Assembly: GCA_965178125.1 (NCBI GenBank)
Contig: OZ237756.1
Span: 186,001-250,000, forward strand
Direction: 5' to 3'
DNA length: 64,000 bases
DNA from: Bilabrum cf. latius
Taxonomy: Eukaryota
Under the pieces are notes generated by a model, which was not told the DNA's origin, did not search any database, and worked only from the letters and a program-made list of their open reading frames with translations. Shown piece by piece: positions 1 to 64,000 of the stretch. The translations under genes were made by a program, and so were the position numbers. How positions within the stretch are numbered: position 1 is the stretch's first letter; each line of letters starts with the position of its first letter.

Positions 1-1
1 C

Positions 2-3000
2 TCCGCGGAGGGGATGGAAGCTGGATTCAACAGACGCGGGAGTATCACAAAGAGGAAAAGCTCGATCGATGCAATGATACAGCCAATCAAGATCCAGATG
101 GACGGCATGTCAGGCGTATCCAAGGTGCATCCGGAGCCAACAACGGCTGGCCGGCACATCACATGGACCAAGCAAACCCCATTCGGTTCTCGCACTGGCG
201 CTTCTCTTGGGCTATAGCACGGGCAGGAAGGGGGCATTAAAGCGTTCATGGGTCCGCTTAGAAAGCAGCGCCATCCTGGAATCGTCCCTGCCGTCTCACA
301 GGAGGGCGATCAGCTCTTGCTGCTCGGTTGCTGCCAGCGAGTCTCTATCGCGGCATGTCCGGCGTTCTACGTCTTTCGGTACATGAAGCTGAGGCGACTG
401 CTGACAAGCAGTGCACCACTCATGACTGCCCGTGGAGTTGCTGGAGACCAGTCGTGTGGCGTCCAGGGCATGATGCGGCAGCGGTCAACCCTAGATAAGG
501 TACGCAGCACCAGGACCGACACGAAGCAGCCCCATGTCGACCCGATCCCGCTTCCGTCCGCTGCTCGCATGCACGGCAGTGACGCAGACCTTTTGGACCT
601 GGCCGAGCTGGAGGACCCGGTGGTCGGCGCTGATATCGGAGAGGGCGTCGCAGTGGGCATGAAATGCGAGAAATTCCATGAAAGGGAGCGTGACATGGGC
701 AAGATGTAGCGAGTCGGCGCTAAAACCGATACCTCCAGTCATGATGCTACCAGTAAAAAAAAATAGGACGATGGCGATGCATCGCGCGCGAGTGCTGATG
801 CAGGCGCCGTAGTGGCGGCGGCAATGCCCAGAACTAGACCATTGGGATTCCAAGAATCTAAGCATCAGCAATCAATCCCTTCTGACAGCTGGTAGCCGAG
901 CGCCGGCTTCTAGAATAGCGCGACCATGGATCCAGGACCACGCAGCGAGCAAAGCGCCAACATGCCCTCGGCACGCAGCATGCGAATACCCTCTGCTCGA
1001 AGCCTAGCGAGCGGTCTTCAAGCGCGGCTGGAGGGTGCTGGGGTCATGAGCCAGCCCAGTGGGACTGGATCATCCCTCACCACTCGAACACAGATCTAGC
1101 GACTCGTGAGGAGCCAGGTGGAGCCGGAGATCCGATCCATCCGGGTCATGGTGCTGGTGCTGGCGGCTGCCGTGGTGTGTCTCGGAGTGGGCGTGGTGCT
1201 GTACATACGACAAGTGACATCGAACGTCATGAACTCCTCCTCGTCGGTCTGGGTCGCGGGGCAGAGGCGCAGCGCGCTGCAGACGGGGCTGGATGCGGTG
1301 CTGTGGCTGAGTCTCCACAGCACTGCTGAGCAAGAGCGAGTATTGGCCGGTGCCAACGATCCGTCCTCGAGGCGGCTGTCCAGGATGTACCTGCCAATGA
1401 ACAGCAAGCTCGATGCCCTCGAGTCACTGCGGAATGCGGCAGGTGAACTAGATGCTGCGCAGACTAGGCTGTTTGAATTCGATGTGGATGAGTCCGTGCG
1501 CGACTTCGAGCAAGTGCAGGCGATGGAGCTGCAGCTGCCCGGACAGCCGGCGGGTGTAGTGCCAACTCGCGTGCCGCTCGCGCAGCACGTGCAGGAGGCG
1601 ATTGCCGCCATGCGGAGAATCGCTCGGGTGCCGCCTGGGAACATTACAGCGGTGCATCCCGACGTGCAGTTCCTGACTCTGAACAGCGACTTCTGGGACA
1701 TGGCCATGGGCCACTCGCTGAACCTAAGGTACTCCGAGTTCTCTGCTCTTTTCCCGCGCACTGTGCGTACCGTGATCATATTCGGGTCTGTCGCCGTGGT
1801 GCTTTACAACGTCGTGGGAGCCGTGTTCTTTGCTGCGCTCGTGCGATCCATTGGCGCGAAAGTACAGTGGTCTCTGAGCACTCTGCTCCTTCTGCCGAGA
1901 CGGTCTGCCAGAAGACTCGCGGGGCAGGCGCGAGTGCAGCTGACTCGACTAGCGAGCGAGATGCAAGGCGGGATGGATTCCGATAGCGAGCAGGATGATG
2001 ATGATGATGATGATGATGAGGCCGAGGTGATCTACAAGGAATAGGACGCTGGGTTCACCAGAAGTGCCACAGGGAGTCGGCGCAGCATGCATGGACACCC
2101 GCAGCATGCTAAGGATCTTCAAGCGAGGCATTCTCAAAGTATTGAAGTCGTCTAGGAAGATAGCGCGCGTCTGCGCACTACGTCTAGCCCAGAGTCTACC
2201 TCCAGGGCCCGAGCAGACTACCTTCTCTCCTCGGTCGATGGGATCTCCCGCGGGGATTCCATGGTGCTCGCTCCTAAAGGGGGGAGCACACCCAGACATG
2301 AATCAGATGGCGCTTCTGAGACCTTCCGGACGCTTGGCTCGCGTGGCAGTCGGGGTTTCCTAGGATCCTTTGCTTCGCGTCAGGCGAAGTACGCCGCGCT
2401 TGATTTGGCCATGAGTAACATACGGGAGTCAACAGACAGCTCGCACTTTCTGCTGCGATCAACCACCTGGCTGCTGCTGCCCATCCTCCTCGTGCTGGCG
2501 TTCATCGTGTCGGTGGTAGTGATGCAGCTGCAGATCACAGACACGATGCTCATGGCCTCCCGCAGAATCATCACCGCGGAATCGCTCGAGTCGCAGCTGG
2601 CTGGATCCACACGTGCGGCCTTGGAGCTGCAATCCGCAGCGGTGCTTTTAAGGAGTCCATCGGTCGTGTCAGGTCATGTGGATCAGGTGGATCTCCGGAT
2701 TCGCAAGGTGGGGGAGATGCAGTCACTTTTGGCCTTTGGGGGCAGCTCCGATCTCGCCAGGATGCTCATGAACAACGCCACGGATGCAGCGCTCCAACTA
2801 GGCGGCATACCAAGGCAGGGAATGCACCTCGTGCCCGTAGTTAGCAACGATGCGCCAGGCGCCGAGACGTCGTTCCGCATTCTGCATCGAGACGCCTGTG
2901 GGCCGACTGCGGCGGCCAACATCACCACAAACGACGTGCTTGGAATGGATGGATCGGATGCACTGCTTGATGCGATCAGTCTGGAGGGCAATGAGCGGCT

Positions 3001-3661
3001 CTTGTATGCCTAGGAGTGCGAGTCCGTGGCCGGAGGGGTGGTGCGAGAGGGTGTGTTGGCAGCCACGGCAAATGTGCTGTTTGACCTTAGGCAAGCGGTC
3101 TATGCAGTGCGAGTAGATCTGAACGGATCGAATATCTAGTCTCCCAGTGCACCTCCCGTCGTTGCCAATGCCAGCGGCGCGGATGCGTCGTCGCAGTGGA
3201 TGTCCTCAAGCACTCTCGGAGCGCTGGCCGACAGTAGGCAGCGTGCTAGAGCCATCGTACATCCTTACCTCCTTCGTGCCGTCGCGACGCTGCGGACGGT
3301 GTTCTTCCTGTCCACCAAGGAGGTCGCTCGGCACGAGGAGCAGCTTGTGGAGACCACGTCGTGGGTCTTCGTGGGTGTCTTCCTCCTCGCCTCTTTGCTG
3401 TACTGGCCAGCAATCGCCAGCCTGAACGAGCCGCTGGCTGCGGCGAGGCAGATCCTGGCGCTGATCCCGCAGCAAACGATCGCGAGGAATGCCGTGCTTA
3501 AGTTCGGGCTGCAGCAAATTGCCAGGCAGCAGACACGTGTGGCGATGTCGCACGGGCAGGGCCGGGGCTCCGGGGTGTCACCGAGCGAGCCGGTGCGGGA
3601 CATCGGAGGGGCGTCGGTGTCTCAGCGTGGCGGCCGTGTCAGCATATAGGAAGTCGCTTGA
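2..3661 (+). CDS. 5'-truncated multipass membrane protein resembling the C-terminal half of TmcB/TmcC-like PAS-domain membrane proteins
   Basis: ORFs 14, 248, 1106, 2261 and 3200 share one frame and are separated only by TAG (215, 707, 764, 893, 911, 1097, 2042, 2153, 3011, 3137, 3647). The first other stop is TGA 3659-3661. Paired hydrophobic helices alternate with long polar linkers. The terminal TM followed by ILALIPQQTIARN resembles the family C-terminus. The family call is an inference. Confidence 0.7.
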
Positions 3662-4069
3662 GGTTTCAGCATCGCGGTGGGGTCGTACATCCGGATCGAT
3701 CGTGCGGGATTCGTGCCCTGTTTGACCGCGTCGACAAGCTCATTTTTGGCAACAGGTGTAGTCCGACTTGTAAACCGAGTAGGTTAGTTGCCTTTTTCGT
3801 TTCGCGGTGGAAATTCATCCTGCCATTTCTGCGTTCAGGAATTGTGAGTACCTTTGTCTAGAGACAATGCATGATTTTTGACATCAATTTCCAACCATCT
3901 AATCATGGTAGCACAGCGACACGAGCGCGACGGGGTCTGCGATGCGGATCGGCAAGCCGACCCACTACACGAATCTGACCAGAAAGATTAGACTCCAGAG
4001 TCCGGACTCCGGACACCATGACAGGCTTTACAATTGGATGCGATCTATTCCACCTCATATCGCAGCCAT

Positions 4070-7000
4070 TTAAGCGGGTACACGGCTGCCGACGCTGGCA
4101 ACTAGTAACACTGTCGCACTGCCCAACCACACCACTGCCCCAGCTAGCGCAGCCACAACTAGCGCAGCAGCAGCACAGGGCGCCAATGCGGTCGCAACGC
4201 CCCACGCAATCCACTGAAGCACAAGAACCGCGACGGGCGCATCCACCTGCCTCACGTCCTGCCAGTGCCCCGCGGTGCCCGCCACGAGGCTCCAGAGCAC
4301 GGCCCCGCCCGACCACGCCCAGGCCAGCCGCACCCCGGCTACAACTATCGGTCCGAGCTCGCCAATCGGAATGGCATGCATCGCAACGCAGCTGGTTTTC
4401 GTGGGGAGGCATCCGTTGGCTTGCGGGGCACTCGCACTCGCAGGCGCATCTACTGCAATCCCCGGTGTGAGCACTCGATCGAGCTCACCACGAAGCGCCA
4501 GCTCCACCAGAACAGCAACAAATCCAGCCGCAACATGCTGCAAGCATTGTATTGCACGGTGCCTTGCACGGCCAGAGAGCTGCATGGCTGCGACAAGTGC
4601 GAACTGTCCCAGCAGCATGCCCGCGAAGAGTGCCACCAGCGCTGTCTGGGCTCCCCTGCCCGCGAACTTGGTTTGGGCAGCGCACTGAGCGATGGAGGGG
4701 ACGGGAGGTGCTGCAGCGCGCACTTGGGCAGATGGCTACGGGGACCTCTGTCGATCAACAGCGTCACCGCCACCCTCGTGCTGATCTGTGCCTCGACCTC
4801 CTCTCTGCTGCTCCGTCGCATCGGCTGCAGTGACTCCATCACCGGCATTGGCAGTTGCTGTGTCCTCGTCGTTACCGCCATCCTGATCACCGCCCCCATT
4901 TCCATCAACAGCATTCTAGCCACCGTTGGAGTCACCATCTTTTGCGCCGCCCTCTGCAAGCATTCTTGTCGGGTCGTCGCCGGCGCGGCCATCCTCGTCT
5001 GCATCACCATTCCCACCGGTGTCTGCTGGCCCAGCAGGCTATTCCAAGCCAACAGTATCGGTTTCCTGGTCCGCAGCTTGAGCATCTGAACCTCCGCTGC
5101 CAGCCCCACCCTAAACCTTTCTCGACCGCACCCTACGACTCGATCGACTCTTCAAGTGCCCCCTGCGCCGCTTATCACCTGCCCGACCACCACCATCACG
5201 ACCTTGGCCACGCCTGCGGCTGGCTCGGCGCACCACGGGGCTAGGCTCCTCCTCCTCGTCCTCATCTCCATCTCCCTACATGCCGTCGCTGTCCTCTTCA
5301 CGATGCCTCCTGCCACCACCCTGCGCCTTGCCAGCCTGCACTTCCTCCTCCTCCTCCTCCTAAGTGTCCTCGTTCGCAGATTCGTCCTGCTTCTCGCCAT
5401 ATTCTGCTCCGGACGATCCGGACGGGGGACTGCCGTTCTGCTCAGCTACCAGCGCTCCCACCACCAGCACGTTCGTGGGCTGCACCTGCTCCGGATCATT
5501 GGCAGCCGAGTTGCCGGAAGCGAGGCCAGCTGCCGCAGCGGGAGCCACGCCATCACTCGGGCTTCTGCGGCGCCGTGTCCCTGAAGCAACGGCAGGATCA
5601 TCACCTCGCCCAGTCAGTGGATCGGTTGCACCAGTACCGGAGCCTGTTTTATCACCAGGCAGCAGAGCGCGCTTGGCAGTGCTTCCACCACCGCTTGCGA
5701 CACCCTCTCTCATCCGAATCCCGAGTATCTGCACGCTGGCATGCAGCACAAGGGCCAGCCATCCGCCCAGCACGATACACGTCAGCAGCTGACTCCAACC
5801 GGGTTCAGACACGACGGACAAAGTCCACGTGACAAACTACCACAGGGTGCCAGTCACTGACATGATGAACTTCCACTAAGACAGGGCCCAACCTGTCCAC
5901 GATCGAGCCAACGAGCCCGAAATGACCCGAGCAGATCGCGCGGCTGCGTCACCATCCCGCCGTTCGCCTGATTCCGCAAGCTGCATTGCACTGCTCTGGT
6001 CGTTTTGCACCGCTACAACTACCGCCCACGCGCATATGACCGAAGCGCAGAGCCATGCCAGCCGGCGTGTCACCTAAGCTACGCCGCCAGCAACAGTCAC
6101 GATCACGGCGATACACCGTGCAAACCAGCCTCCACCCTGCTCAGGTGCAGCGGCTGCACCGTCCTATGCTGCATTTCCGGCAGCGTTCTGTCCATCGCCA
6201 TTGCCTTGTCCCTGCCCACGTCGGCAGCAGCACGCCGCAGCACGCAACAGACGGGTGACCCAGCCGGCCGCGTCCGACGCATACCGCACCACCAGAATGC
6301 AAGCGCCTCCAGCAGCACCGCAGGCCCACGCAATCCACCCGAGCAAGCCCAGCCCGAGCCCCGCGAGGAGGTCGGCCCAGCTGCTCGCACCCAGCAGTCG
6401 CAACAGCAAGCGCTGCGCGTTCCATAGAACCATGACCAGGAGCAAGCTCGTCACATTCAGCAGCATCGCACGGAGCGTGCTACCGCTGGACGCGCCAGCG
6501 CTGCCCAAGTGCTCCTCTTGCTCGTCTCCTTCCACTTGCTCTAGCGATGGCTGCATCATAGAAGATGGCAAGCCACTGAATAACAGCCCACCCCCTCGCA
6601 ATCTTCCACCAGCAATCGACAGCCCGTCATCCCCCTCCTCCTATTCTAAATCAGCTGATACCGGCAAGACACTGCCCACCTACTGCCACCGCGCTAGCCT
6701 CACGAGCGAACTGAGCACCAGCAGCAGCACGCCAATCGAGAAGCTTGGGCGCACGGCGCTTGGGCTGTACGGGTATCCCACCGCCCTCCTAATGTGTTCC
6801 CTAATTCCGAATTGCCGCCGCTCGGCACCAACGGGGTGCAGAGACCAGGTGCTGCTGGCCCGCCCCAGCACGTCTGCCTCAGCAGAAGCGAGGCAGGCCC
6901 TCCCGGCGCTGGCCAGCTCCGGGTCCAGGACGCACAGTGCACTGCATGCAACCTGCAGGGCCACGCCGGGTAGGGTAGTGCAGGACCTGTCCGCGACTCC

Positions 7001-9952
7001 GATCGACGACGAGGCATCGTCCCCGGGCGAGCTGCTGGGCTCAGCCAGCCCGATCTGCTGCAGCACGCCGATGCCCCCGTCAGTGCCCCTGCCTCCCCCA
7101 TCATTACCACCATCACCCTACCCTGCTTCCTGCACGACACCAGGGGGCGGGACAGGCGGTCCCTCCTCCTCCTGCTCTGGATCTGGCTGGGGCATGGGCG
7201 GGAGATCGGCGGTCTTCTCCGGCATCATGGGCGAGAGGACCTGCTGCCACCCCTCCTGCAACACGAAGGGGGGCGAGAGCACGCGATGGGCGCGGAACTC
7301 ATCCGGGTAGGACACGACCACGTCACCGTGTCCGATGGAAGTCGAGTATCCCATGGCGGACCGCAGGCACTGCATCCAGAGGGCGTGCTCCTGATCTTTG
7401 TATCCATCCTGGATCAGCTTGGCCCAAGTGGGCAGCGGCAGCGGCCAGGCAGCCTCCTGCAGCACCTCCCTGCGGCGAGATGCCCTGTCCTCCAGCGAGG
7501 TCTTGTCCTTGCCCTTGCGACCCGTGGCACCCAGCTCTGCTCCCAGAGTCCACGCCATGCTGAAGAAGATCACGCGGTCGCTGACGCCCTCATCCGGCTG
7601 GTACTCGGCCCCATCCGCCTTGCTCCTGCCTCGCTTGGCGGCCGGCCCGTGTTCCCGAGACCCGTGGTAGGCGGCAAACTGCCCCCGCTGCCACACCAAG
7701 AACTCGTCCTACGCTAGGAGAGGCGTGTCGGCTGCCTCACTGCCACTTTTTCTGTTGCTGCCGGCGGATGCATCCCCTGACGAAGCCGCTCCATGGGTGT
7801 GCCAGCGGAATGCAGACTCCAGGTAGAGTGCGGCCACCTGCAGCGATAGACACAGTGCCGTGCAGGCTGCAACCGCCGCGGGAAGAAGCAGTGCCTCATT
7901 CAGAGGCATGGGAGTTCCCGACATCCAAGTGGCCAGCACGAGGCTTGGTGACTCGGACCACATCGAGCCCGAAGCAACTGGGCGTGCTTGGGCCAGGAAG
8001 ACTGCTGGAAGAGGCAAGAAGCAGTCCACAGCAATGCCCAACAGCACCCCAATCCCAGCAGCAGGAGCAGCCCCTCTCACGCCAACTGGAATCAGGCGGG
8101 TAGTTCCTTCAACATGCCCCGTCCTGCGCCACCTGGCCACCGCCTGCAGCGACACCCATGCGAGGCCCATCGACACCCCGAGGGCTGCGAGGACACCGGC
8201 GTGCCGGTGCCCCACCTCGCCCTCGATCGCCCACAAGGACCCTGCACCCAGCCCAGCAACCGTCCCTGCCACCACGACCCCAGGAAGCAGCCCAGTACCC
8301 ACGAGCACGGGCCTCCAAGTGTACCACACGACCGACAAAGAGGCACCTGTGAGCGCCCAACCAAGTGCCCCACCTGCAGCACTTGCCATGAACCACGAGC
8401 CACTGGAAGAAGACTGGCCTGCATCTTCCTCGCCCATGCTTGTACTTACAGTCCCAAACCCCTTCTAATCACCACCTAGATCATCACCTAGATCGCCGCC
8501 GAGGCCCCAGGGCAGCCTGGCGCACACCAGCACGTCCCAGGCAGGCCACAGCAGGAGCAGCCCGAGCAACGCCCCGATGGCTGCCGCAAGCGGAACCACT
8601 ACAATGCCGCGGCGCCGCGCAGCCCTGTGCATGACCTCCCCTAGAAACCTCCTGGAGTGGAACCACACCGATGCGAGCGGGAAGTGGTGCTGCAGCCTCA
8701 GCTCCATGCACCAGTGCACCGGGGACAATGCGTGCCACACGGAGCACAGGGAGGTCCACGAGCCGATGGCCAGCAGCACGTTCAGCAGCAGCGGAGCAAC
8801 GGCCCATGGGTCATCACGCGCATCCTCCCACGTGCTGGGGAACACACTGCGACCGGTTGCAACCTGCGGGATACCAATGGCCGCCCCCCTCCACAGGGTG
8901 CCCCACAGAGCAGTCAGCTGGTGGTCCATGCGCTGCTCTTCCGGAGCCAAGCATGCTCGCAGGAGCAGCAGCAGGATGATGACGGCAGGGATGTGCCAGA
9001 ACAGCATTGCCCCGGTGCTGGTGGACACCTGCACGAAGGCTGCGGAGTAGGCAGGCGAGCAATAGAGCCGAAGGACGGTTTGGGATTGGGATTGGGATGA
9101 GACACGGCTTGTCAAGGGGAGACTCAACCGATGACCGCAAAGAGAGCACACAAAAACACAGAGCGAGCAAAAAATAAATAAAGGAAAGCATCGTGCCTCA
9201 CGCCGCATCCTGGGTCCCTCGTCGGGGTCGTCAGCATCGTGGAGCTTGTCAGCGGGTATCGCCAGCAGGCGGGGGATAGCCCTGGTTCCCTGACGAACGT
9301 TCGCTGCGGGAGGGCACGCGCGCTGGCAGAATACCTGTGAGGGGACCACCACGTCTCCTCTCGGCGTGAGCAGGAGGTGGCTTGCGACCAGCCCGCTGGC
9401 CTGGTATCCCATGGGCGGAGCGCTGCAGGTCACGGAGCGGATAGCGACCTCCACGTTCTGCCGGGCGCGGCCGTCGCTTGCGTTGAATCTGATACGATCA
9501 GGTGCAGTTCTCCAGAACATGGGGACGAGGAGCGTGTCCACAAGCTCGGCTGGGAGCAAATGCCTGATCCAGCCGATGCTCGCCTGCACGGCTCCTGCGA
9601 TGCCGCTGCGGCGGCGGATCGAGGTGCGCAGCTCCAATTCACAAACGTCCTGGGCTGCACCCCCGGCAGAACCGCCTGATTTCTCCCACCTAACGTTCGG
9701 CGGGGGAGGTTTCTTGCTATCTTCAAGGGAGAGGTGATCCAGATCGACTCCATCCATGACTAGGCGAGCGAGCTGTGCCATGAGTTCATCATTCCAGGCC
9801 TATCCCCTTCCGATAACGTACCGATGGTACAAGTTTAATGCCATGTTGCTGCCGATTTCATCGGGAATCTCGTTCATCACGCCCATCTCGCGGAATGCCA
9901 AGTACGGTTCCTTGCTAACCTCGTAAACCTTTCCATCTCCAACAGCAGCCAT
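4070..9952 (-). CDS. Large (~1900 aa) multipass membrane protein of unknown function
   Basis: Minus-strand ORFs ending at 8465, 7709, 7118, 6680, 6164, 5876, 5360 and 4070 are all in one frame and joined by ~16 TAGs. The gene ends at TAA 4072-4070. Probable 162-nt intron 9201-9040 (GTGAG...CTCCGCAG, T-rich). Many TM segments with acidic, Gly-rich linkers. The start (ATG 9952) is uncertain. Confidence 0.7.
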
Positions 9953-10165
9953 AGCTCCGTATACGTACGGTAAATCCACCCAGAATAATTGTGCGTATTT
10001 GAAGCCCTGCCGCGGCTGTCGGCTAGTAGATTCGATTGATCAAGCACCACTGGCAACGGTTGGCAGACAAACCGGAACCGACCCAGAGCAGGCCGCCAAA
10101 TAGACTAGTAGTCCATGTACACGCCGGCGGATTGCGCCCCGTCATACTTCGTGCTAGCCACAGCT

Positions 10166-12756: not shown

Positions 12757-13059
12757 CCCGAGCCAGGATCAGTAAAATATAGGCAACCACTTCTTTATTG
12801 CGACCTTAGCCAGGTACGGATGTGGGGCAGTGGCCGTAGTCACTATCGGCGCGATGTGACCTGTCGCGCCGACCACCTAGAGCGCTTTTGGGGGCTTCAT
12901 CTTCATATTTAGAGACTACACAAGTTGTGTTATAATGGTTAGCGTGGCTTGATTGTGAAGCAATTGCATACCCTCAATTGTAAAATGAATCAATTGGATG
13001 TCCTTTTATCTGCCTGCACTTTTGCGTCATGCGCTGATGACCCAGTGGCAGCCAGGCCA

Positions 13060-17562: not shown

Positions 17563-17788
17563 CGCAACGTGAGGAACGATTCATCGTTCGCGGATTGAGC
17601 GTGTCCTGGCTTGGACGTTTCTACTCCACTTCAAGTTGCTTCGCTTTGCGATCGACAGGTTCATCATTAGTTCGCTCATGATCCAGCGAACTTCGCGTCA
17701 ACGGCTCGGTTCGCAAGCTTTTGGAAGTGCAGCATTCGAAGGCCGGCACCTGAGTTGAATTTTTCTGTCTTGGCTAGATACAAGTACT

Positions 17789-48750: not shown

Positions 48751-49089
48751 TTTCAGTCCTTGGAAATTGCTAGTTCTTGGGAATTGGGTGGTGTCGCCCG
48801 CAAAAAGAATGCAACAAGACGAATTCAAGCAGGCGAGCACGTAATCATCGTTCAAACTGTGATACTCGGCAGCAGAAGTTTCCACTAATTCCAGTCAGCC
48901 GGTAGACAGCTGTACGCAACAAGCAATGCTTGGAGGCGCGGCAAGCAGCTTGGCCGCAGAAAAATAGGTGCTGAGGCTTGCGACAACTTGAAGCCAACAC
49001 AGTTGCGACCGCTGCTGGCGAGGGCCGTTCGGCAACGCGGTAACTCCTGCCATCTACAGGTTCAAAGTCCTGTGCACCATGATTTGACC

Positions 49090-52000: not shown

Positions 52001-52275
52001 AGCACGATGGTATCGATGGTCGCAAGGGCACAGTGGCTGGCCCCCGGGCTTTCCCAGTGGTCCACCGGCAGCTTGAGTCGCTCAGGTGGCTGCTGCCTCC
52101 CGATGCGGCCAGCAGGCAGCCTGATGTGGACGTGGTGCTGGGGCTCAGGGACCTGCAAGGGGAAGGGGCGGCTCCTCCCGATGCGGGTGATTTTGAGGGC
52201 CGGCCTGCTGCTGCTGCCAGTGCTGGCAGGTAGTACACGGGGAGAAGGCGAAGCATGGTGGGGCGGCCGCGCTGA
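49090..52275 (+). CDS. ~1060-aa low-complexity, probably disordered G/S/R-rich hypothetical protein
   Basis: ORFs 48988, 50623, 51490 and 52033 are in one frame, joined by 7 TAGs (50479, 50512, 50572, 50584, 51460, 51934, 52231). Ends TGA 52273-52275. Confidence 0.65.
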
Positions 52276-53635: not shown

Positions 53636-54827
53636 ATGGTGAGTCTCTTGAGGCACTAATAATCGTGGCATATATTCACACGTACGGCCGTGGATCGCTT
53701 TGACTGGTTTCTCAGCGCTAATGTGCGAGCATCGGGATGGTCTCCATTTGCTCGCTTTTTTGAGTGATCTCATCGCAGTCGGCAATGGAATACAATGGGG
53801 CCGCAGTCATCGCCATGGTTGGCAAAGACTGTGTTGGTATTGCAAGGTGAGTAGCTGCGCATTATTTGACGTGGACTGTGCACCAGCTTCGATCAGCCAA
53901 GCACAAACTCAGCGACGTATCCACTCGGCCCAGCTTCCATTTCGCAGCGATCTGAGATTGGGGCAGCAGGCTCTGACGGTAGATTGCAACTTCAGCAAGA
54001 TTTTCAAGTATAACGACAAAATGCTGTGTGGGTACGCCGGTCTGGCTACGGACGTGACGACATTGCACGAGACCATGGAATTCAAGCACAACATGTATTC
54101 GCTCAAGGAAGAGAGAGATATGAAGCCTAGCACATTCACCGGTCTATTGACGCACACGCTGTACGAGAGGCGGTGAGTTTGCCGTCCAGTTTAGGTTGCA
54201 GGCGCATCATCATCAGCACAGGATGGCATATGCTCCAAATCGCTCGTGTCCTCTTCATGCATGCGTTCTCTCCTGCACGACAACAAGCTCTTCATGCACC
54301 GCAGATTTGCCCCGTACTTTTGCGAGCCCGTGGTGGCAGGCCTGGAGGGCAAGGAGGGCACCCCCTACATCTCGGGGATGGACCTCGTGGGCGCTCCCGT
54401 CAGGACGGAGGACTTCATCGTCAGCGGGACCTGCACGGAGAACTGCTACGGAATGTGCGAGAGCCTGTGGCACAAGGATATGGTGAGGAAAGCGAGTGGC
54501 CTTGTAGGGTGTATGCCGCAGTGTTGACGGATCGGTTTCACGTTCCACAGTGGTTCCTTGGATCTGATCACGATGTATCCTCCCATGCCTTCGGGTCACC
54601 ATCTCCTAATGCAAGCATCGTCACCCCGCTTCATCGTTACACTCGTCCCATATCCTACCCTTGCGTGTTCCTACCGTTCGCAGGACGAGGACGAGCTCTT
54701 TGAGACCCTCGGTCAGTCGCTGCTTGCCGCAGTGGACAGGGATGCAATCAGCGGGTGGGGGGCCGTGGTGCACATCCTGAACAAGAAGGGACTCACGACC
54801 AAGTACCTCAAGTCCAGGAAGGACTGA
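53636..54827 (+). CDS. PSMB3: 20S proteasome subunit beta type-3 (205 aa)
   Basis: Five exons (53636-53638, 53779-53846, 53948-54172, 54305-54482, 54684-54827) with GTGAG...CAG introns. Spliced product MSAMEYNGAAVIAMVGKDCVGIASDLRLG...GLATDV...YERRFAPYF...CESLW...AVDRDAISGWG...RKD. Ends TGA. Confidence 0.97.
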
Positions 54828-55107: not shown

Positions 55108-57398
55108 ATGCCTTCTAAAAAGAAAAGCGATAGCTCAGCGCCGGAACTAAAGCCCTTGCCCAAACCGTCAACACTACCGGATTGGAGGGAATCATAGGAG
55201 CCAGGGGATTCAGATACTGAGGGTGAGCCAAACGCATTTTTTCGTGTTTGTGAGCCTGCTACCCCGTGCAAGTATACCGTTTGCCAATTTAAAGATTTAG
55301 CTCCATGCAGATTACTAGTACTATGGAAAGTTTCGACGAGACTATGTGCATCTGTGCGAGGTGCTTTCAATTGGACCACATCAACAGCTTGTAGGCAGAA
55401 TCAAGCGACCAATGAGTGAGAATGCCATGTTAGTAGCATCACACCGTATCCAAATGCAGAGTAGAGCGATTCACGCAAGCGCCGCACGACTATGTTATTG
55501 CCGCAGCGACGATCGAGCTCCGAGCCGCGAGCGAGCAGGCCCAGGCCGGCGACGGCAGCATCGACCGGCAGGCCAGCGCCGAGGTGACCGCCGCCCTCGA
55601 GGCGATGTCCGCATCCAACGACCGAACGCTTCCAATCGAGCTGCGTCCGAAAACCGCAATCGATGCCTTCGACGTGAGCGACGAGCTCGCCTGTCTTCAG
55701 CTCAGGGGCACCCGCCTCGACCCAGGCACCTGCGCCGCACTGTGCCTTGCGCTGCCGAGGTGTCCCGAGGTGAAGGAGATTTCGTTCTGGCAGGTTGCAA
55801 CCACGCCTGATCTGATCCGATCGCTGGCGGAGGCCCTGCGGAGCGAAGGTTCGGCGGTTCGCAGGGTGGCCATCGACTACTCCCCGCTGGTGCCCCCGAA
55901 CATTACCAATGGCTCTGATACCAGTGGTAGTGGTAGCAGCGATGTTGCTATTGGAAAACAGGAGCACTGGCAGCAGGAAGGCGGGGATGACGATGTGGAC
56001 GTGACGAGTGCTGCCGCATCGTCAGGAGCAGGTGGCGGTCCTGCTCCTACGGGCCCTTCAGACGACGAGCAAGAGGGAGGCAGCAGCCCAGGGAACAAGG
56101 AGAGCCCCACGGCTGCCTTCTTCGATCTGCTGCGGCCCGAGGCACGGCTCGAGTGCCTGTCGCTGCGTGGGAACAGGATCTGCGACGATGACGTGGGGCA
56201 CTTGTGCACTGCACTGCTGCGCACGCGGTACCTCAAGGTGCTCAACCTGTCGCGGAACAGGCTGACTGCGCGCGGCGCCGCGCAGTTGCTGGGCGCCGTC
56301 CGGGACTGTCGTGGGCTCGAAGGTCTGTCGCTGTCCCACAACTAGATAGAGGAGGAAGATTCGACGAAAACCAGGCCGGTAAGGGAGTGCGAGGGCGAGG
56401 GCGAGGGCGACGCTGGCTTGGAATCTGAGGCCGGGGACACGATGAAAGATGAAGATGATGAATAGACCGAGTCGGATCTGCAGCAGTTTGCCAAGGAGTT
56501 AGGACGGGCGGTTTCGCGGAGGTACTTGCTCGGGGAGAGCGAGTGGGTGGCCCGGCAGCGGCTGGGCATTGCCGCTGGGCTGTTGGAGGAGGGAGAAGAC
56601 GAGGTGCCCTAGTCACAGGGGCAGGATACGGGGGGCAAGGGCGGGAAGGGTAAAGGCGGCAAGGGGAAGGATAAAGGGAAGGGCAAGGACAAGGGAGGCA
56701 AGAAGGGGGGCAAGGGCAAGGGTGGTGGGGAAGACGTCATCGAAGCCGAGATGCCCGAGGTGGATGAGCTGCTGGATGATGACGAGTGCTCATTGGCGCC
56801 GCGGCAATGGTGCGGAACCGGGTGCATTTCCCTCAGGTACGTCGATCTGGGCCGTAATCCCATTGGTGTGGATGGCGCTTGCTCGCTGCTGGATGCAGTG
56901 CTGCCTGCCCTGCCCGAGCCAGCTGATGGTGAGACAGCTATGGGCGGGGATGGGGAGAGAGATGGGCTCGGGGCAGCAGGGGTGTGTACTGGCGAGGGCA
57001 GTCCCAGGAGTGCCAGCGGGACATCGAGCAAGGCCGGGTCGGGCAAGGGCAGTTCCAGGAGTGCCAGCGGGACATCGAGCAAGGCAGGGTCGGGCAAGGG
57101 CAGTTCCAGGAGTGCCAGCGGGACATCGAGCAAGGCAGGGTCGGGCAAGGCTAGCCCGCGAGGTGGCGGGAAGAGCAAGAGCAAGGGCAAAGGGAAAGGG
57201 AAGGGGCATGCTGATGTCGAGGAAGGTGACCAGCGGGAGTGCTTCTTGGAGTGCATTGCACTGTAGGCGTGCGGTGTGGCCGGGCTGGGTGACGATGTCG
57301 GAGCGGCATCGGACGAGTTGGCCAGCAGGCTCGCTGGAGACGGGCTTGTGGAGAGGGCTGGGGCGAGCGGTGTGGAGGTGCAAGTGAGCACGAGCTGA
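55108..57398 (+). CDS. RNI-type leucine-rich-repeat protein, LRRC71-like (~703 aa)
   Basis: Exons 55108-55222, 55311-55415 and 55507-57398 with phase-consistent GT-AG introns. LRRs LECLSLRGNRI, LKVLNLSRNRL, LEGLSLSHN*I and LRYVDLGRNPI, plus K/G-rich linkers. Six internal TAGs; ends TGA. The LRRC71 resemblance is from recollection. Confidence 0.75.
56996..57148 (+). repeat. Coding minisatellite, 3 x 51 bp (GSxRSASGTSSKAGSGK)
   Basis: Three near-identical units here; the downstream duplicate (~59780-59830) has one unit. Confidence 0.9.
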
Positions 57399-57636: not shown

Positions 57637-59214
57637 ATGTCTCTTGGACTCGCGGAGGAGGCCGAATATGTCCAGCCCAATCTCGACTTTCACTTTCTCG
57701 TATGTTCTGAAGTGTTCGTTGTCCACCTGCTGCCAGCGGCTATTGATTTACTGGGTGTATGGCTTGGTTCACTTACATTTTTCCTGCTACCTGCTCGCCA
57801 TCTTGTTTCGCAGGCGCCGTACACTGGGATACACAACTACAAGACTCTGGATTATACCAGAAGCCTTAAGCAGGTTGATAAGGCAGTAGAAGCAGTCAGA
57901 CAAGGGCGATCGAAGATCAGCATGCCGGGAAAGACTTCAAAGAGGGCCATTGAGGAAGTGGCAGTGGTACTGTCCGAGGATGGCGTCCGGCTGCGATCCT
58001 TGCAAGTAAGTCAATCAGAGCGAGAAGGATTTGATGCAGGCGTGGGATCTGCGCTTTGCTCAGCAGTGTGTGTGGACACGATTGACGGCTTCCCGCATCT
58101 GCAGTGCTTGATCTCATAGTGGGCGAAGTGGAGGCTGGACTGCATGGCTGCCCTTGCACCTGCCATGCTGCACGCGGGCGGCAAGAACCGGCTTCGAGTC
58201 CTGGTGCTGAAAGGGTTGACGCACATGTCATTGGAGTGCGTGCAGGTCTTCCAGAAAGTGCTGGCCGACTCGCAGTGCAGTCTGGAGGTGCTGAAGATCC
58301 GCGATATGCTAGGCAGCCTCCGCTGTATCCCCCCCCGGAAGCCGGAAGTCATTGAGGAACTATACAAGATGAATCGTCTCATGGCCGACGGCATCCGATG
58401 CAACCGGAGCATTCGGTATTGTCACCTGGGTCCGTGCAACTTGGATCTTGACACAATGCTGGCATGGACAGAGGCACTCAGCAGCAACAGCTCGTTGGTG
58501 CAGTTGGAAACGAGCTGGATCCTTCTGCCGGGATGCGGTTTGGCCCCACATAATGCGATGGGGGAGTGCGCGGCCCGCATTGTGAGGGAGAATGCTAGCA
58601 TCCAGCACCTCGCCTTCAAATACGACATGAATCCAGCCCGGAAATCTACCCCGTGCCGAGTGGGTCCGCTGTGTGATGCGGTACGGCAAAACGAATCGCT
58701 ACGGTCGCTCGTGATCGGACCAACAGGTCATCCCGACTTCCGGGGCCAGCATGAAGAAGCAGCCAGGCAGTGCGGCAGAATGCTGGATGCTGTGCTGGCC
58801 AACCCACGGATCGTGTTCTTCCAGTGGCAACGTGCGTGTGGTACTTACCACGAGGATCACATAATCCCTGCCATGCTGCCCCGGTTGCGGGCCTTCAACA
58901 GCCGTCGCAGGCGCATCGGTGCACTGCTGCATCACCGTGTGGCGAGCCAGGCCCGGCGGGATGCGGGGCTGGTGTGGCGGGCCGCATCCGAGGGCAGGCC
59001 TCTGGAGCTGGCCAGGAGGCTGAGGCTGGGTGTGATGGCAGGCGGGGCTGAGCTTAAGGTGGATGTGGGCGGGGTGATGCAGGACGCGATGGAGGCAGCG
59101 ATGGCGAATGGACACGAGGAGTGCGGCGTGCTAGTGCGTCGGTCGCTGGCGAGGGAGGTGCGGAGGCGAGCGATCTATGGCGTGGGTGGGGGGAGCGTGA
59201 AGGTTGTCTCGTGA
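57637..59214 (+). CDS. RNI-like LRR protein with ankyrin-like C-terminal helices, copy A
   Basis: ORFs 57637 and 58144 are joined through TAG 58117. Probable 114-nt intron 57700-57813 (GTATGT...TCGCAG). Repeats of the type ALSSNSSLVQL, NASIQHL and NESLRSL; EAAMANGHEECGVLV is ankyrin-like. Ends TGA. Confidence 0.7.
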
Positions 59215-60315: not shown

Positions 60316-61911
60316 ATGTCTCTTGGACTCGCGGAGGAGGCCGAATATGTCCAGCCCAGTCTCGACTTTCACTTTCTCGTATGTTCTGAAGTGTTCGTTG
60401 TCCACCTGCTGCCAGCGGCTATTGATTTACTGGGTATCTGGCTTGGTTTACTAACGTTTCTCTTGTTACCTGCTCGCCGTCTTGTTTCGCAGGCGCCGTA
60501 CACTGGGATACACAACTACAGGACCCTGGATTATACTAGATACCTCAAGCAGGTTGACAAGGCAGTGGAAGCAGTCAGACAAGGGAGATCAAAAACCAGC
60601 ATGCCTAGAAAGACTTCATAGAGGGGCATTGAGGAACTGGCATCGGTACTGTCCGAGGATGGCGTCCGGCTGCGATCCTTGCAAGTAAGTCAATCAGAGC
60701 GAGAAGGATTTGATGCAGGCGTAGGATCTGCGCTTTGCTCAGCAGTGTGCATGGACACGATTGACGGCTTCCCGCGTCTGCAGTGCCTGGTGTCATAGTG
60801 GGCGAAGTGGAGGCTGGACTGCATGGCTGCCCTTGCACCTGCCATGCTGCACGCGGGCGGCAAGAACCGGCTTCGAGTCCTGGTGCTGAAAGGGTTGACA
60901 CATATGTCATTGGAGTGCGTGCAGGTCTTGCATGCAGTGCTGTCCGACTCGCAGTGCAGTTTGGAGGTACTCAAGATCCGCGATATGCTAGGCAGCCTTC
61001 CCTGTATCCCCACCCGGAAGCCGGAAGTCATTGAGGAACTATACAAGATGAATCGTCTCATGGCCGACGGCATCCGATGCAACCGGAGCATTCGGTACTG
61101 CCACCTGGGTCCGTGCAACTTGGATCTTGACGCGATGCTGGCATGGACAGAGGCACTCAGCAGCAACAGCACGTTGGTGCAGGTGGAAACGAGCTGGATC
61201 CTTCTGCCGGGATGCGGTTTGGCCCCATACAATGCGATGGGGGAGTGTGCGGCCCGCATCGTGAGGGAGAACACCAGCATCCGGCACCTCACCTTCAGAT
61301 ACAACATGACTACAGGCCGTAAATCTACCCCGTGCCGATTGGGTCCGCTGTGTGATGCGGTACGGCAAAACAAATCGCTACGGTCGCTTGTGATCGGATC
61401 AACAGGCCTTCCCGACTTCCGGGGCTAGCCTGAAGAAGCAGCCAGACAGTGCGGCAGAATGCTGGAGGCTGTGCTGGCCAACCCGCGGATCGTGTTCCTC
61501 TGGTGGCAACGTGTGTGTGGTACCCACCACGAGGACCACACCATTCCTGCCATGCTGCCCCGGCTGCGGGCCTTCAACAGCCGTCGCAGGCGCATCGGTG
61601 CACTGCTGCATCACCGTGTGGCGAGCCAGGCCCGGCGGGATGCGGGGCTGGTGTGGCGGGCCGCATCCGAGGGCAGGCCTCTGGAGCTGGCCAGGAGGCT
61701 GAGGCTGGGTGTGATGGCGGGCGGGGCTGAGCTTAAGGTGGATGTGGGTGGGGTGAAGCAGAACGCGATGGAGGCAGCGATGGCAAATGGACACGATGAG
61801 TGCGGCGTGCTAGTGTGTCGGTCGCTGGCGAGGGAGGTGCGGAGGCGAGCGATCTACGGCCTAAATGCGGTTGCTGAAGTAGTGGTAAGTGATCAAACGT
61901 GTTTGCGTTGA
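60316..61911 (+). CDS. RNI-like LRR protein, copy B
   Basis: ORFs 60316, 60823 and 61459 are in one frame, joined by TAG 60619, 60796 and 61426. Probable intron 60379-60492. No frameshift; new C-terminus ending TGA. Confidence 0.7.
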
Positions 61912-62264
61912 TACGAAGCTGTAAGAATGTGCCGTGCTCCAAAAATTAAATTCAAAAATGGATCAAAAGGTGTTGGTTTGGGTACCTGGTGGGTACACGC
62001 AAGCATCCAGCATCTAGTATCGGCGCTTCCATCAGAGCAGCCAGCTGTCTTTCGGGCCAGTCTTTTTACGGCGTGGACCCCATCCGAATGGATGACATGG
62101 ACTTTTCTTTCTTCCAGTCCGCACTATCGCCGCTTGTTCCGGCGTCCCCATCTGGATATTGATTTTTAGCACCACCATACTCCTTATGGCTTCAACACCT
62201 GGTGTCCCCGTACGCTCGGATCTAGATGTACCAGGGTCGGACAGAATGACGCGAGTTCGAGGTT

Positions 62265-64000
62265 TCACCTATCTCGAAACCGAACCGATACATCTACACT
62301 GAGTGGTACATCCTCGAGACGCTCATTCTTAGAGTGTACATGCACATACAGAGAGGGCTCTTGCACCGTGACCCCGACGTGCCATTGGAGCGGCTCCTCT
62401 GACTCGGTCTCACCATCCATGGGTTGGCACGATTGTGCCCGGGACTGCCCACCAGCGCCGTGCGGGTCCAAAAACACCATGACGTTGATCGTTTCCGCCG
62501 CAGCCTCAGTGCCGCAGCGCGGTACACGTCTAGCAAGCACCGCAAATCGGCCCATGGTATTCGAATACAGCGTCCACGGACAGCCATCCAGGACATCGAT
62601 CAGCACGTCGGTTTCCTCGATCTCTGCTTCAGCGTCGGCCGAATCAGAGCCGAAACACATGCCAGAAAGCGTGAATAATGCAAATGAGAGCCCTGGATCT
62701 GCGGGTGCATCGCATTTGACTCGACTTGGGAATGCCTCATTCCGGGAGGTATCTTCTGCCGGCACGCTCTCTCTGTCGACAGAGCCAGCAGCACCACCGG
62801 CCACGCCACCCGCACTAGCCCCAGCAGACTTGACACCAGTTCTAGCCCCAGCACCATCGTCGCCAGTACTAGCCTTCTCACCCTTGCTGCCTGCCCTTGC
62901 CTCCGCACCGTCGCTACTAGCTCTAGTAGCTGCAGCGGCTTTAGCTTCATCCTCACGATCACGCCTGATGCCAGAGATATCTGCATCGATGCGAAGCAGC
63001 GAATCAAATGCAGGCTCACCGCCGGGCTCTGCGTGAATAACCAGCCTAGTCATTGTGCTACAACTCGCATCTGTACAAATAGTTTCGCGTAGCTCATCTT
63101 TCAGCTGGTAAGGGCCACCGCCGGCAGCCTGATGTATCGCAACGTGCACACCGGGGAATCGGCTCGTTGATTGACACTCGCTGCCTTCTGGTTCAATTTT
63201 TTTGAAGCAGCCACACCGGTACGTAAGCAGCACAGGGTCACACGCATCCTCACTGGGGTCGCATAGGGCTGGAAGCAGATCCGCACGCGGTACTTTCCAC
63301 GATTCAAGGTCGGTCGAGGCCATGTCCCTCATCACCAATCTCTAGTCCTCCCGACCTGCCATAGTATCTGCGAGCTGTGCCTCCAGCCATCCCTCACCAA
63401 CACCAAAAGGGGCGGACGCTGCTATCGCCAGCTCCACATCCTTGTTGTTGGCTTGCAGCAGATGGAAACCCTTGGTCACGTCGACGATCTGCAGCGTACT
63501 GGCCATGGTGATCAGCGATCTGGTCACACGAGGCGCCGAAAATGAAGTACCCCGCGTGGTTTCACGTCCCTAGACGAGTGTCTCAAAATCAACTTTGTTG
63601 ATTCCCTCACCCTAGGCGAATACATCGACAGCACGGCCGTAGTGAGAAAACCCGGACATGCGCACAAAAGGCTCTGCTGCTCGGCCAGCATGGGATGCAG
63701 CATATTGATCAGAAGCATCCGGCACTGGGACAGCGTGGGATCCCACGCAAATCACACCCTTGGCATTGCAAGGGTAGGAGTCGGCGGCATTCATGTGATT
63801 GTTGCCAGCTGCGGCCACAAGAAGGAAGCCCAGGTTGTGCAGCACATCGGAAAAGTGATCCAGCTCCTCTGAGATCCTGATCATAGTCTCCGCTCTGATG
63901 GGAGGCCTCTTGGTTCCGACCGCCTGCTTTCTTCCGTCCCAGTTCGTAATGGCCATATTCACCACCCCTAGGACGGTCCCATCACGAAAAGAGGCGCCCA
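62265..64000 (-). CDS. Subtilisin-like (S8) serine protease with long C-terminal extension, 5' end outside the window
   Basis: VVNMAI, LLVAAAGNN (oxyanion Asn), VICVGS, FSHYGRAVDVFA*G and then GTSFSAPRV (catalytic Ser), all in one frame across TAGs 63612, 63570 and 63342. The frame ends at TGA 62267-62265, which might overlap a splice donor. Confidence 0.82.

Follow-up and report, generated by a model that had tools for sequence, protein, structure and literature searches.

Introduction

The change of UAG from a stop codon to glutamine is a rare genetic-code change. Codes in which both UAA and UAG are read as glutamine (table 6) are found in many ciliates, hexamitid diplomonads, some Ulvophyceae, Streblomastix and Amoeboaphelidium. 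Other lineages are already known to read UAG as glutamine while retaining UAA as a terminator (PMC5304391, PMC11687900). In Iotanema spirale (Fornicata), UAG encodes glutamine and accounts for approximately 8% of the glutamine codons, while UAA is the main stop (Panek et al. 2017, PMC5304391). Among the ciliates, Protocruzia tuzeti and some phyllopharyngeans use UAG alone as an additional glutamine codon (PMC11687900). The rhizarian exLh uses UAG least in its ribosomal protein genes and only rarely in highly expressed genes (PMC5304391).

Here, we analysed a stretch of 64,000 nt (the window; GC content 61%) in which the reassignment of UAG is real. The window probably belongs to the nuclear genome of a flagellated protist, rich in GC, poor in introns and likely to be a stramenopile, with UAG as a sense codon, most likely for glutamine, and UAA and UGA still as stops, the pattern of NCBI table 15.

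Results

Reading frames and stop codons

Fifteen trimmed gene models (17,186 codons) contained 83 TAG, 0 TAA and 0 TGA in frame, in line with a sequence-only reading of the window that had claimed 80–85 TAGs in 15 genes, no internal TAA or TGA and no frameshifts; none of the latter was detected between conserved blocks. The other two frames of the same gene models, summed, held 185 TAG, 67 TAA and 595 TGA. TAG was approximately as frequent in frame as out of frame, whereas TAA and TGA, at out-of-frame densities of approximately 34 and 298 per frame, were missing from the reading frame. The zero counts of TAA and TGA were partly built in because the frames had been defined as free of both, and the absence of TAG terminators is partly circular in the same way. 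Independent support for a sense TAG is provided by homologous sequence and codon usage that continue past the TAGs.

Reading TAG as sense increased the stop-to-stop frames of at least 500 codons in the window from 9 to 24 and those of at least 800 codons from 2 to 12. With TAA read as sense, there were 10 and 2 such frames, respectively. In 100 simulated windows (first-order Markov), the mean was 0.22 TAG-sense frames of at least 500 codons and the longest had 700 codons, compared with 24 frames and a longest of 4,368 codons in the actual window. Of 53 TAG-bounded segments with a length of at least 50 codons, 41 had the best codon-usage score of all six frames in the expected one. A sense UAG in nuclear genes, as claimed by the sequence-only reading, is supported by these frame statistics, by one-frame homology across TAGs, by the codon-usage frame test and by spliced, transcript-like contigs that retained TAG.

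The 15 gene models terminated with TGA (11) or TAA (4). If TAA were to CAA as TAG is to CAG, approximately 21 in-frame TAA would be expected (136 × 83/528), but none was observed. TAG made up 11% of the glutamine-type codons (TAG, CAG and CAA) and was approximately tenfold rarer in three high-GC3 genes, which suggests that it is more poorly decoded than CAG or that near-neutral transitions from CAG to TAG brought it into coding sequence under weak constraint. Most TAGs were located in low-complexity, poorly conserved inserts.

Genes containing in-frame TAGs

The five proteins that the sequence-only reading had restored by reading through TAG were confirmed with Pfam and PDB as Peptidase_C54 (ATG4), a Rad51/XRCC2-like protein (XRCC2), an AlkB/ALKBH 2OG-Fe(II) oxygenase (ALKBH1-like), a subtilase (S8 protease) and CFAP53. 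The ATG4 cysteine protease gene (13060–17562, minus strand; 1,500 codons, stop TGA; Pfam E 2.1e-43) had long low-complexity inserts and 12 in-frame TAG. Residues 139–285, 689–742 and 1073–1105 matched human ATG4A/B without a change of frame, and the stretches between these blocks held 11 TAGs. CFAP53, a FAP53-like coiled-coil flagellar protein (17789–19222, plus strand; 477 codons, stop TGA), contained one in-frame TAG at 17876–17878. Residues 7–476 aligned with FAP53 in the PDB (E 1.3e-12), and the alignment reached the last residue of Chlamydomonas FAP53. The AlkB/ALKBH-type 2OG-Fe(II) dioxygenase gene (40781–43411, plus strand; 876 codons, 9 in-frame TAG, stop TGA; Pfam E 4.6e-28, PDB AlkB E 1.4e-18) carried GS and GA repeat inserts, and another frame scored higher over residues 183–536. 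The Rad51-paralogue/XRCC2-like gene (45688–48885, minus strand; 1,065 codons, 4 in-frame TAG, stop TAA) had Pfam Rad51 and AAA_25 matches at residues 121–178 and 807–856, with three TAGs between them, and a PDB match to XRCC2 (E 0.006–0.008). The subtilase S8 gene (62265–63998, minus strand; 577 codons, stop TGA; Pfam E 1.4e-08) was open at the window end, and two of its three in-frame TAGs were located within the catalytic domain.

A giant surface protein (24955–38016, plus strand; 4,353 codons, stop TGA) combined cadherin-like and IPT/TIG repeats with a multi-pass membrane region that was conserved and C-terminal. Its gene contained 2 in-frame TAG at a GC3 of 0.86, and representative homologues of its C-terminal part numbered 2,543 (E ≤ 0.001). 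The JMJD6-like JmjC gene (43645–45570, minus strand; 641 codons, stop TGA) was without TAG. A leucine-rich-repeat (LRR) gene (55452–57398, plus strand; 648 codons counted, stop TGA) contained 4 in-frame TAG, one of which occupied an LRR "N-x-I" position. Two tandem paralogues on the plus strand (paralogue 1, 57637–59214, 525 codons; paralogue 2, 60316–61911, 531 codons) had a nucleotide identity of 92% and differed in 98 codons, 41 synonymously and 57 not. They had one TAG in common (58117–58119 in paralogue 1, its only one; 60796–60798 in paralogue 2, which had three).

Pfam matches were absent for g1, a membrane protein open at the window start (2–3661, plus strand; 1,219 codons, 11 in-frame TAG, stop TGA), for g2, a multi-pass membrane protein (4070–9979, minus strand; 1,969 codons, 16 in-frame TAG, stop TAA), for the downstream exon of g3 (10166–12478, minus strand; 770 codons, 9 in-frame TAG, stop TAA), of which the coding start was unresolved, and for g49, a basic low-complexity protein (48988–52275, plus strand; 1,095 codons, 7 in-frame TAG, stop TGA). 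In g1, the expected frame scored best in five of six TAG-bounded segments.

Introns and assembled contigs

The genome is poor in introns but not free of them. The proteasome beta subunit gene alone (53785–54827, plus strand; six-frame read; stop TGA; Pfam Proteasome E 1.6e-22) had three GT–AG introns between four exons without TAG. Another gene, sulfotransferase-like with a Cupin_8/JmjC domain (Pfam), consisted of exon 1 (22415–23064, minus strand; 217 codons from an ATG at 23064), a 181-nt GT–AG intron (22234–22414, minus strand; ends GTGAGA and CCGCAG) and exon 2 (19410–22232, minus strand; 940 codons, stop TAA), with an in-frame join by frame arithmetic from the coordinates. Its one in-frame TAG (21255–21257) was located upstream of the cupin domain. 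In g3, a 112-nt GT–AG intron (12480–12591, minus strand; ends GTAAGC and TTTGCAG) was seen as a joint in one X7 contig at a depth of 3. No intron other than these two gave a contig joint within the 19 kb compared; the three proteasome introns were outside that 19 kb.

Most, but not all, of the TAGs previously counted as coding could be retained. The TAG at 22335–22337 was located in the 181-nt intron, two TAGs (55429–55434) preceded the first ATG of the LRR gene, and one (12743–12745) was upstream of the g3 intron in an uncertain frame.

The joint 22232/22414 across the 181-nt intron was present in contigs of X5, X6 and X7, three runs from two further studies, whereas X1, a DNA-like run, read straight through. 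The spliced contigs of all three runs retained the TAG at 21255–21257 with 0 differences. Transcript-sized CFAP53 contigs (X5, 17728–19252; X6, 17750–19255; X7, 17731–19191) also kept their TAG with 0 differences. X5 contigs covered four TAGs of g2 (4390–5261) and all nine of g3 (10018–12363) with 0 differences, and all 12 ATG4 TAGs were unchanged in contigs of this run. Contigs of the four runs from three studies were concordant at every covered TAG and unbroken through the TAG-bearing inserts. The sole base difference listed in the 19 kb compared was A>G at 12738 in one contig, and none was at any TAG. TAG was unchanged in GT–AG-spliced contigs; therefore, most TAGs are neither introns nor errors, nor are they edited. 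The RNA label of X5–X7 was a software guess, with X5 flagged as "probably DNA", and RNA origin was shown only by the spliced contig, which holds only one coding TAG. Since contigs drop rare variants, partial editing is not excluded.

Residue at UAG and taxonomic placement

At the giant-protein TAG 36676–36678 (plus strand; residue 3908), the aligned column was Q in 124 of 141 homologues. The other rows had L (13), M (2), I (1) and G (1), with no K, E, S, Y or W, and the adjoining columns were F in 113 and A in 112 of the 141. In ATG4, the TAG at residue 329 (16576–16578, minus strand) faced Q in P0272, a protein of a relative with 79% identity (146/185), within a fully identical 27-residue stretch. 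Under NCBI table 15, the translation of the ATG4 stretch agreed with P0272, which was called under the standard code and ended exactly before the TAG at residue 339 (16546–16548, minus strand). In paralogue 2, the TAG at 61426–61428 was opposite CAG (Q) of paralogue 1 and that at 60619–60621 opposite AAG (K). The S8 TAG at 63612–63614 was opposite the conserved P of an A-P-G motif in both PDB alignments, which were weak (E 0.003–0.007). The evidence for glutamine comprises only three sites, and the AAG and Pro sites do not speak for it. As judged from these alignments, glutamine is the most likely residue.

The best named matches were stramenopiles. In a JMJD6 tree, the window was placed inside a clade with all 14 named stramenopiles, with Cafeteria as the nearest named row (SH-aLRT 81–90). 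This tree represents a single gene with only top matches sampled, and it weakly suggests a putative position among stramenopiles near Cafeteria. The bicosoecid-like stramenopile proposed from sequence agrees with this one tree. Full-text literature searches, with subscription journals outside their scope, did not turn up a nuclear reassignment of UAG in any stramenopile. Calling the code undescribed in stramenopiles fits this negative result but cannot be proven, and this kind of code is known in other lineages.

Discussion

Most of the TAG stretches being untranslated, as introns, decaying pseudogenes (e.g., by C-to-T decay of CAG) or assembly or sequencing errors, is scarcely credible. One TAG does fall within a demonstrated intron and another three probably do not belong to coding sequence, most TAGs sit in poorly conserved low-complexity inserts, and ALKBH residues 183–536 score better in another frame. 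However, introns or decay would have added TGA and TAA, which were frequent out of frame and absent in frame. Conserved blocks were not separated by frameshifts, contig joints revealed only the two introns in the 19 kb compared, and contigs crossed the inserts unbroken with agreement among runs and studies. Moreover, ATG4 of the relative still has a stop at the corresponding position. We regard U-to-C editing of UAG to CAG in mRNA under a standard code as highly improbable, too. It would account for TAG facing glutamine at informative sites, with CAG one transition away, and stop-removing U-to-C editing exists in plant organelles (PMC12548569). Against it, TAG was unchanged in spliced and transcript-sized contigs of X5–X7, in which minority editing would be missed but not majority editing, and the only difference in 19 kb was the A>G at 12738.

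Another residue at a sense UAG is unlikely, whether leucine (as in exLh), Lys, Glu, Ser or Tyr, each with a codon that differs from TAG by a single base. The 13 homologues with L, the paralogue site with AAG and several g2 TAGs beside or within hydrophobic stretches would fit it, and nuclear codes with UAG as Leu and as Ser exist (PMC11687900); the 124 Q without K, E, S, Y or W in the giant-protein column, the Q of the close relative in an identical stretch of ATG4 and the paralogue site with CAG argue for glutamine. There is also a small chance that UAG has two meanings, glutamine within genes and terminator towards the 3′ end of some mRNAs, comparable to Condylostoma, karyorelict ciliates and Blastocrithidia (UAA); context-dependent codes are already published. 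TAGs occurred a few codons before the assigned TGA or TAA in g1 (residue 1216 of 1,219) and g49 (residue 1082 of 1,095), and TAG was disfavoured in high-GC3 genes. No gene among the 15 requires TAG for termination, although the window is no proper test of a double meaning. CFAP53, aligned to the end of its homologue, stops with TGA, and the 15 genes have 11 TGA and 4 TAA as terminators. Termination at UAG could still take place in some contexts.

For a UAG dedicated to glutamine, the mechanism can only be inferred from other UAG-only reassignments (PMC5304391). UAG but not UAA would be read by a tRNA-Gln whose anticodon, CUA, differs by one base from that of tRNA-Gln(CUG), and eRF1 would have lost recognition of UAG while keeping UAA and UGA. 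Neither the tRNA nor eRF1 was seen, and no tRNA genes were found in the 64,000-nt window.

One of the closest counterparts is Iotanema spirale, in which UAG alone is likewise reassigned to glutamine as a minor codon (approximately 8% there, 11% here), UAA and UGA are kept as stops and tRNA-Gln(CUA) is the predicted mechanism. In contrast, our organism was placed, if weakly, among stramenopiles rather than metamonads by the JMJD6 tree, and the evidence here is genomic DNA with a GC content of 61%, whereas the Iotanema paper rests on transcriptome data only (PMC5304391). NCBI table 15 (Blepharisma nuclear) and the ciliates with only UAG as glutamine share TAG as Q with TAA and TGA as stops. Unlike these, the window is not from a ciliate; it has spliceosomal GT–AG introns, long multi-gene GC-rich DNA and stramenopiles as the best named matches. 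As in exLh (UAG as Leu) and Scotinosphaera (UAG as Ser), the nuclear code treats UAG separately from UAA, and the rarity of UAG in highly expressed exLh genes (PMC5304391) parallels that of TAG in high-GC3 genes here. The residue differs, with Q predominant over L and no S in the best column, and Q in the relative. The codes with both UAA and UAG as glutamine also read a stop as glutamine, presumably via an anticodon-mutated tRNA-Gln. Unlike in those codes, TAA is not sense here: it was absent from 17,186 codons, compared with the approximately 21 expected, and ends four of the 15 genes.

Gene content of the window

The families that the sequence-only reading had named were verified with Pfam and PDB searches. 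ATG4 (Peptidase_C54, E = 2.1e-43), an AlkB/ALKBH 2OG-Fe(II) dioxygenase (40781–43411, plus strand; E = 4.6e-28), a Rad51-paralogue/XRCC2-like protein and a subtilase S8 were encoded in the window, and Chlamydomonas FAP53 aligned end to end with the window CFAP53 (E = 1.3e-12). Also present were an LRR gene, two tandem genes of unknown family, a gene combining sulfotransferase-like and Cupin_8 parts, a JMJD6-like gene that lacked TAG, and a surface protein of 4,353 codons with cadherin-like and IPT/TIG repeats (24955–38016, plus strand; hereafter the giant protein). A six-frame Pfam scan of 38017–40784 gave no match. The proteasome beta subunit gene (53785–54827, plus strand) consisted of four exons separated by three short GT–AG introns with GTGAG-type 5′ ends, had no TAG in its exons and ended in TGA. 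As this gene shows, the genome is intron-poor but not intron-free.

An LCCL-domain frame (24470–25237) was located just upstream of the giant protein, in another frame, and may be its first exon. Many of the 2,543 representative homologues of the giant protein's C-terminal multi-pass membrane region were likewise 3,000–7,000 residues long. At 23352–24245 (minus strand), a unit of about 50 residues in the translated frame was repeated twice almost exactly, and this stretch was therefore interpreted as intergenic tandem repeat DNA. Upstream of the intron of g3, a gene model without a Pfam match, a short frame (12592–12760, minus strand) began with Met-Gly-Cys-Cys, an acylation-like N-terminus. 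The low-depth splice observed between exons 1 and 2 of g3 failed to join this frame to the long g3 frame. CFAP53 (plus strand) and the Cupin_8 gene (minus strand) were convergent at 19222–19410, and their transcript-like contigs stopped at approximately 19252 and 19346, less than 100 nt apart. The TAA stop of the Cupin_8 gene was followed by two more TAA and one TGA within 11 codons.

In-frame TAG codons

The GC content of the 64-kb window was 0.57–0.67 per 4 kb, and both strands carried genes. Long frames were broken under the standard code. When TAG was read through, 24 stop-to-stop frames of at least 500 codons were present instead of 9, and 12 of at least 800 codons instead of 2. TAG-sense frames of at least 500 codons averaged only 0.22 over 100 first-order Markov simulations of the window, and the longest had 700 codons, compared with 4,368 codons for the longest real frame.

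Trimmed to 15 gene models with 17,186 codons in total, and without the TAGs in two small frames (24920 and 38987), the set contained 83 TAG, no TAA and no TGA in frame. Out of frame, these stretches contained 185 TAG, 67 TAA and 595 TGA, summed over both other frames. TAG was thus about equally frequent in and out of frame, whereas TAA and TGA were excluded in frame. Because the way in which the frames were delimited partly dictates the zero counts, independent evidence was needed. All three ATG4 blocks that aligned to human ATG4A/B (residues 139–285, 689–742 and 1073–1105) were in the same frame across 11 intervening TAGs, and in the XRCC2-like gene, Rad51 and AAA_25 matches were found on either side of three TAGs. 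A codon-usage score was trained on the four TAG-poorest genes and tested on TAG-bounded segments of at least 50 codons in the other genes. The expected frame scored best of six in 41 of 53 segments; among the 12 that failed was one long segment (ALKBH residues 183–536).

The ALKBH gene carried long, microsatellite-like GS and GA dipeptide runs at 41.5–42.4 kb, which separated the two halves of the dioxygenase. The segment with these runs, 354 codons in length, had a higher codon-usage score in another frame.

UAG is read through in frame in this genome, and the proposal of the sequence-only reading that UAG is a sense codon in conserved genes, with the frame kept, was upheld by the TAG counts, the ATG4 alignment and the codon-usage test. 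Its count of about 80–85 TAGs in 15 genes was right, with corrections for individual TAGs. One (22335–22337) was located in a 181-nt intron, two (55429–55434) lay ahead of the LRR gene's first ATG, and one (12743–12745) lay upstream of a 112-nt intron where the frame remained unresolved.

Transcripts and independent sequence

Contigs of four sequencing runs (X1, X5, X6 and X7) were compared with the window over 4001–23000. X1, a DNA-like run from the likely source sample, was one unbroken piece across this region. In one contig each of X5, X6 and X7, which came from two studies, 22232 was joined to 22414, and the skipped 181 nt had GT..AG ends on the minus strand. This splice connected a 217-codon first exon (22415–23064, minus strand) in frame with the Cupin_8 exon (19410–22232, minus strand). 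The TAG at 21255–21257, upstream of the cupin domain, was unchanged in the spliced contigs (0 differences). The CFAP53 gene, including its TAG, was matched without differences by a contig of about 1.5 kb in each of X5, X6 and X7. The X5 contigs listed covered 27 TAGs in g2 and g3 (both without a Pfam match), ATG4, CFAP53 and the Cupin_8 gene, again without differences. One contig had A>G at 12738, which was the sole base difference listed in 19 kb.

The transcript evidence was obtained from contigs only. No run was recorded as RNA, the "RNA?" label of X5–X7 was a guess, and X5 was flagged as possibly DNA; RNA origin was therefore proven only by the spliced contig. Stretches without cover in X6 and X7 were uninformative, and contig depth was not usable to rank genes. 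Within these limits, the persistence of UAG in mature mRNA, for which the sequence-only reading had looked to RNA data, was found at the spliced Cupin_8 TAG and, on the guessed label, at the CFAP53 TAG. Together, the contig agreement and the splice establish that the TAGs are not assembly errors, that most of them lie outside introns and that they are unedited in the majority of transcripts.

Four runs from a single sample (the likely source) contained the region 10001–20000 whole, and runs of three other studies contained part of it. In these three studies, its DNA occurred at full identity in runs under three other coded organism labels. The organism may be a cohabitant or a contaminant of other cultures or samples.

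UAA and UGA as stops and alternative codes

The 15 genes were terminated by TGA (11) or TAA (4). That these two codons are not sense and end genes agrees with their absence in frame, although this agreement is partly circular. A code in which both UAA and UAG are Gln (table 6) was rejected. Had the TAA:CAA ratio equalled that of TAG:CAG (83:528), approximately 21 in-frame TAA would have been expected among 136 CAA, and none was seen in the 17,186 codons. Reading through TAA also lengthened hardly any frame, giving only 10 frames of at least 500 codons (vs. 9) and 2 of at least 800 (vs. 2). Read-through of TGA likewise gave long frames, 36 of at least 500 codons and 9 of at least 800. The simulations produced a mean of 6.25 TGA-sense frames of at least 500 codons by chance, so composition accounts for most of the TGA effect but not for the TAG effect. 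TGA as sense was also without homology support, and we read its long frames as a product of GC-rich composition and antisense frames. The code pattern is that of NCBI table 15, with UAG as sense and UAA and UGA as stops.

TAG was not needed as a terminator in any of the 15 genes, but the frames had been extended through TAG by construction. Some TAGs were only 4–14 codons ahead of the assigned stop. Sense UAG was demonstrated only inside genes, and termination at UAG in some mRNAs, at TAGs near the assigned stops, is not excluded.

Residue inserted at UAG

Few sites were informative, because most TAGs lie in variable inserts. One exception was residue 3908 of the giant protein, a TAG within the conserved membrane region. 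Of the 2,543 representative homologues recovered by a full HMMER search (E ≤ 0.001), the best 150 were used to read the column. The 141 sequences covering it had Q (124), L (13), M (2), I (1) or G (1), and the adjoining columns were well conserved (F in 113 and A in 112 of 141). The second site was the TAG at residue 329 of ATG4. P0272, a protein of 185 residues from a public assembly, was 79% identical to the window ATG4 (146/185) and had Q at this position within an otherwise identical 27-residue stretch. P0272 terminated directly before the next TAG of the window ATG4 (residue 339), as a standard-code gene call would if the relative has a stop codon there too, and it seems to be a fragment from such a call.

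The tandem paralogues (57637–59214 and 60316–61911, plus strand; 92% nucleotide identity) had 98 differing codons. One TAG was common to both, and two differed, as TAG/CAG (Gln) and TAG/AAG (Lys). Of the codon differences, 41 were synonymous vs. 57 non-synonymous, which suggests weak constraint on the pair.

UAG positions therefore matched Gln at three sites, namely the giant-protein column, P0272 and the paralogue CAG. Against Gln stood the AAG opposite the other paralogue TAG and the S8 TAG at 63612–63614, which was opposite Pro of an A-P-G motif in only two, weak PDB alignments (E = 0.003 and 0.007). A code with UAG as Leu, of the rhizarian exLh type, was not supported, with L in 13 and Q in 124 of the 141 sequences and Q in P0272. 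Judged from the alignments, Leu, Lys and Glu are a poor fit or no fit to the two strongest sites. Gln is the best-fitting residue, consistent with both of these sites, and most likely the one inserted, although the sites are few and no residue fits all of them.

The CFAP53 TAG occupied a variable column, and the 11 rows that matched the giant protein around its TAG at residue 1468 all left this TAG uncovered. A homologue search with S8 residues 1–260 retained none of 8,000 candidates at E ≤ 1e-5, so the two TAG columns of S8 were visible only in the two weak PDB alignments. The N-terminal part of ALKBH had no PDB match even at E = 10, and the PDB alignments of the ATG4 sub-region ended short of the TAGs.

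TAG usage across genes

The share of TAG in TAG+CAG+CAA was 11.1%. In the 5,770 codons of the three genes with a GC3 of 0.84–0.87 there were 4 TAG, compared with 79 in the 11,416 codons of the other twelve. TAG density decreased with GC3 (Spearman rho −0.58, p = 0.024, n = 15).

Placement of the organism

The best named matches of the JMJD6-like protein were from stramenopiles (Cafeteria, Hondaea, Aplanochytrium, oomycetes and Nannochloropsis; 45–53% identity), with animals ranking just below. A quick maximum-likelihood tree was constructed from 40 rows chosen by hand from 120 listed matches (81 omitted), comprising all assignable rows with a readable organism name and 15 unnamed top matches. 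The window sequence was placed inside a clade containing all 14 named stramenopiles, in a subgroup with unnamed environmental sequences and Cafeteria, the nearest named row. Support was limited (SH-aLRT 81–90, with 90 and 86 for the subgroup placement; none starred), and the end branch was 0.89. The tree agrees with the earlier guess of a bicosoecid-like stramenopile, but it rests on a single gene for which only top matches were sampled. A metagenome scan with JMJD6 returned 17 loci, the best with 44% identity (one short piece 62%), and no close relative.

Proposed mechanism and significance

Following the reasoning in PMC5304391, a Gln-charged tRNA with anticodon CUA, pairing with UAG but not UAA, would be inferred, together with an eRF1 that would lack UAG recognition. 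No tRNA gene and no eRF1 gene was found in the 64-kb window; an Rfam scan of the window gave no match, and it contained no rRNA. Genomic DNA and apparently RNA data exist, so the tRNA and eRF1 predictions are directly testable. If this genome or its relatives are annotated with the standard code, most long genes will be split into fragments.

The stop-codon reassignment is real. In the most likely code, UAG encodes Gln while UAA and UGA terminate translation, and the organism is probably a stramenopile flagellate. The suggestion that the reassignment is undescribed held in our literature search, which found no nuclear UAG reassignment in stramenopiles, with subscription journals and supplements outside its reach. 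On a broader reading, stramenopiles would have here their first nuclear stop-codon reassignment: UAG would have changed to Gln independently in a lineage of bicosoecid-related flagellates that keeps UAA and UGA as stops. The change would be common to at least one further species (the source of P0272), and the genome is apparently present in culture or repeated samples. On this reading, TAG is still disfavoured and is avoided in strongly biased genes, so the reassignment would be young or inefficient. We consider the case for this broader reading to be evenly balanced.

Nuclear code changes are few, and those in which UAG and UAA differ in meaning are fewer still; passages of PMC11687900 and PMC5304391 name Iotanema, Scotinosphaera, one rhizarian and some ciliates. 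If another supergroup lineage adds an independent case, it would inform how UAG becomes uncoupled from UAA through tRNA-Gln(CUA) capture and eRF1 narrowing. UAG-only cases are already listed in the Discussion of PMC11687900 for an uncultured rhizarian (Leu), Iotanema (Gln), Scotinosphaera (Ser), Protocruzia (Gln) and phyllopharyngean ciliates, so there is precedent for this kind of code, here in what appears to be a new lineage. Its TAG usage also resembles that of known systems in PMC5304391: a like tendency is described for the rhizarian exLh, where UAG is rarest in ribosomal protein genes, and the UAG share of about 8% in Iotanema is similar to that in the window.
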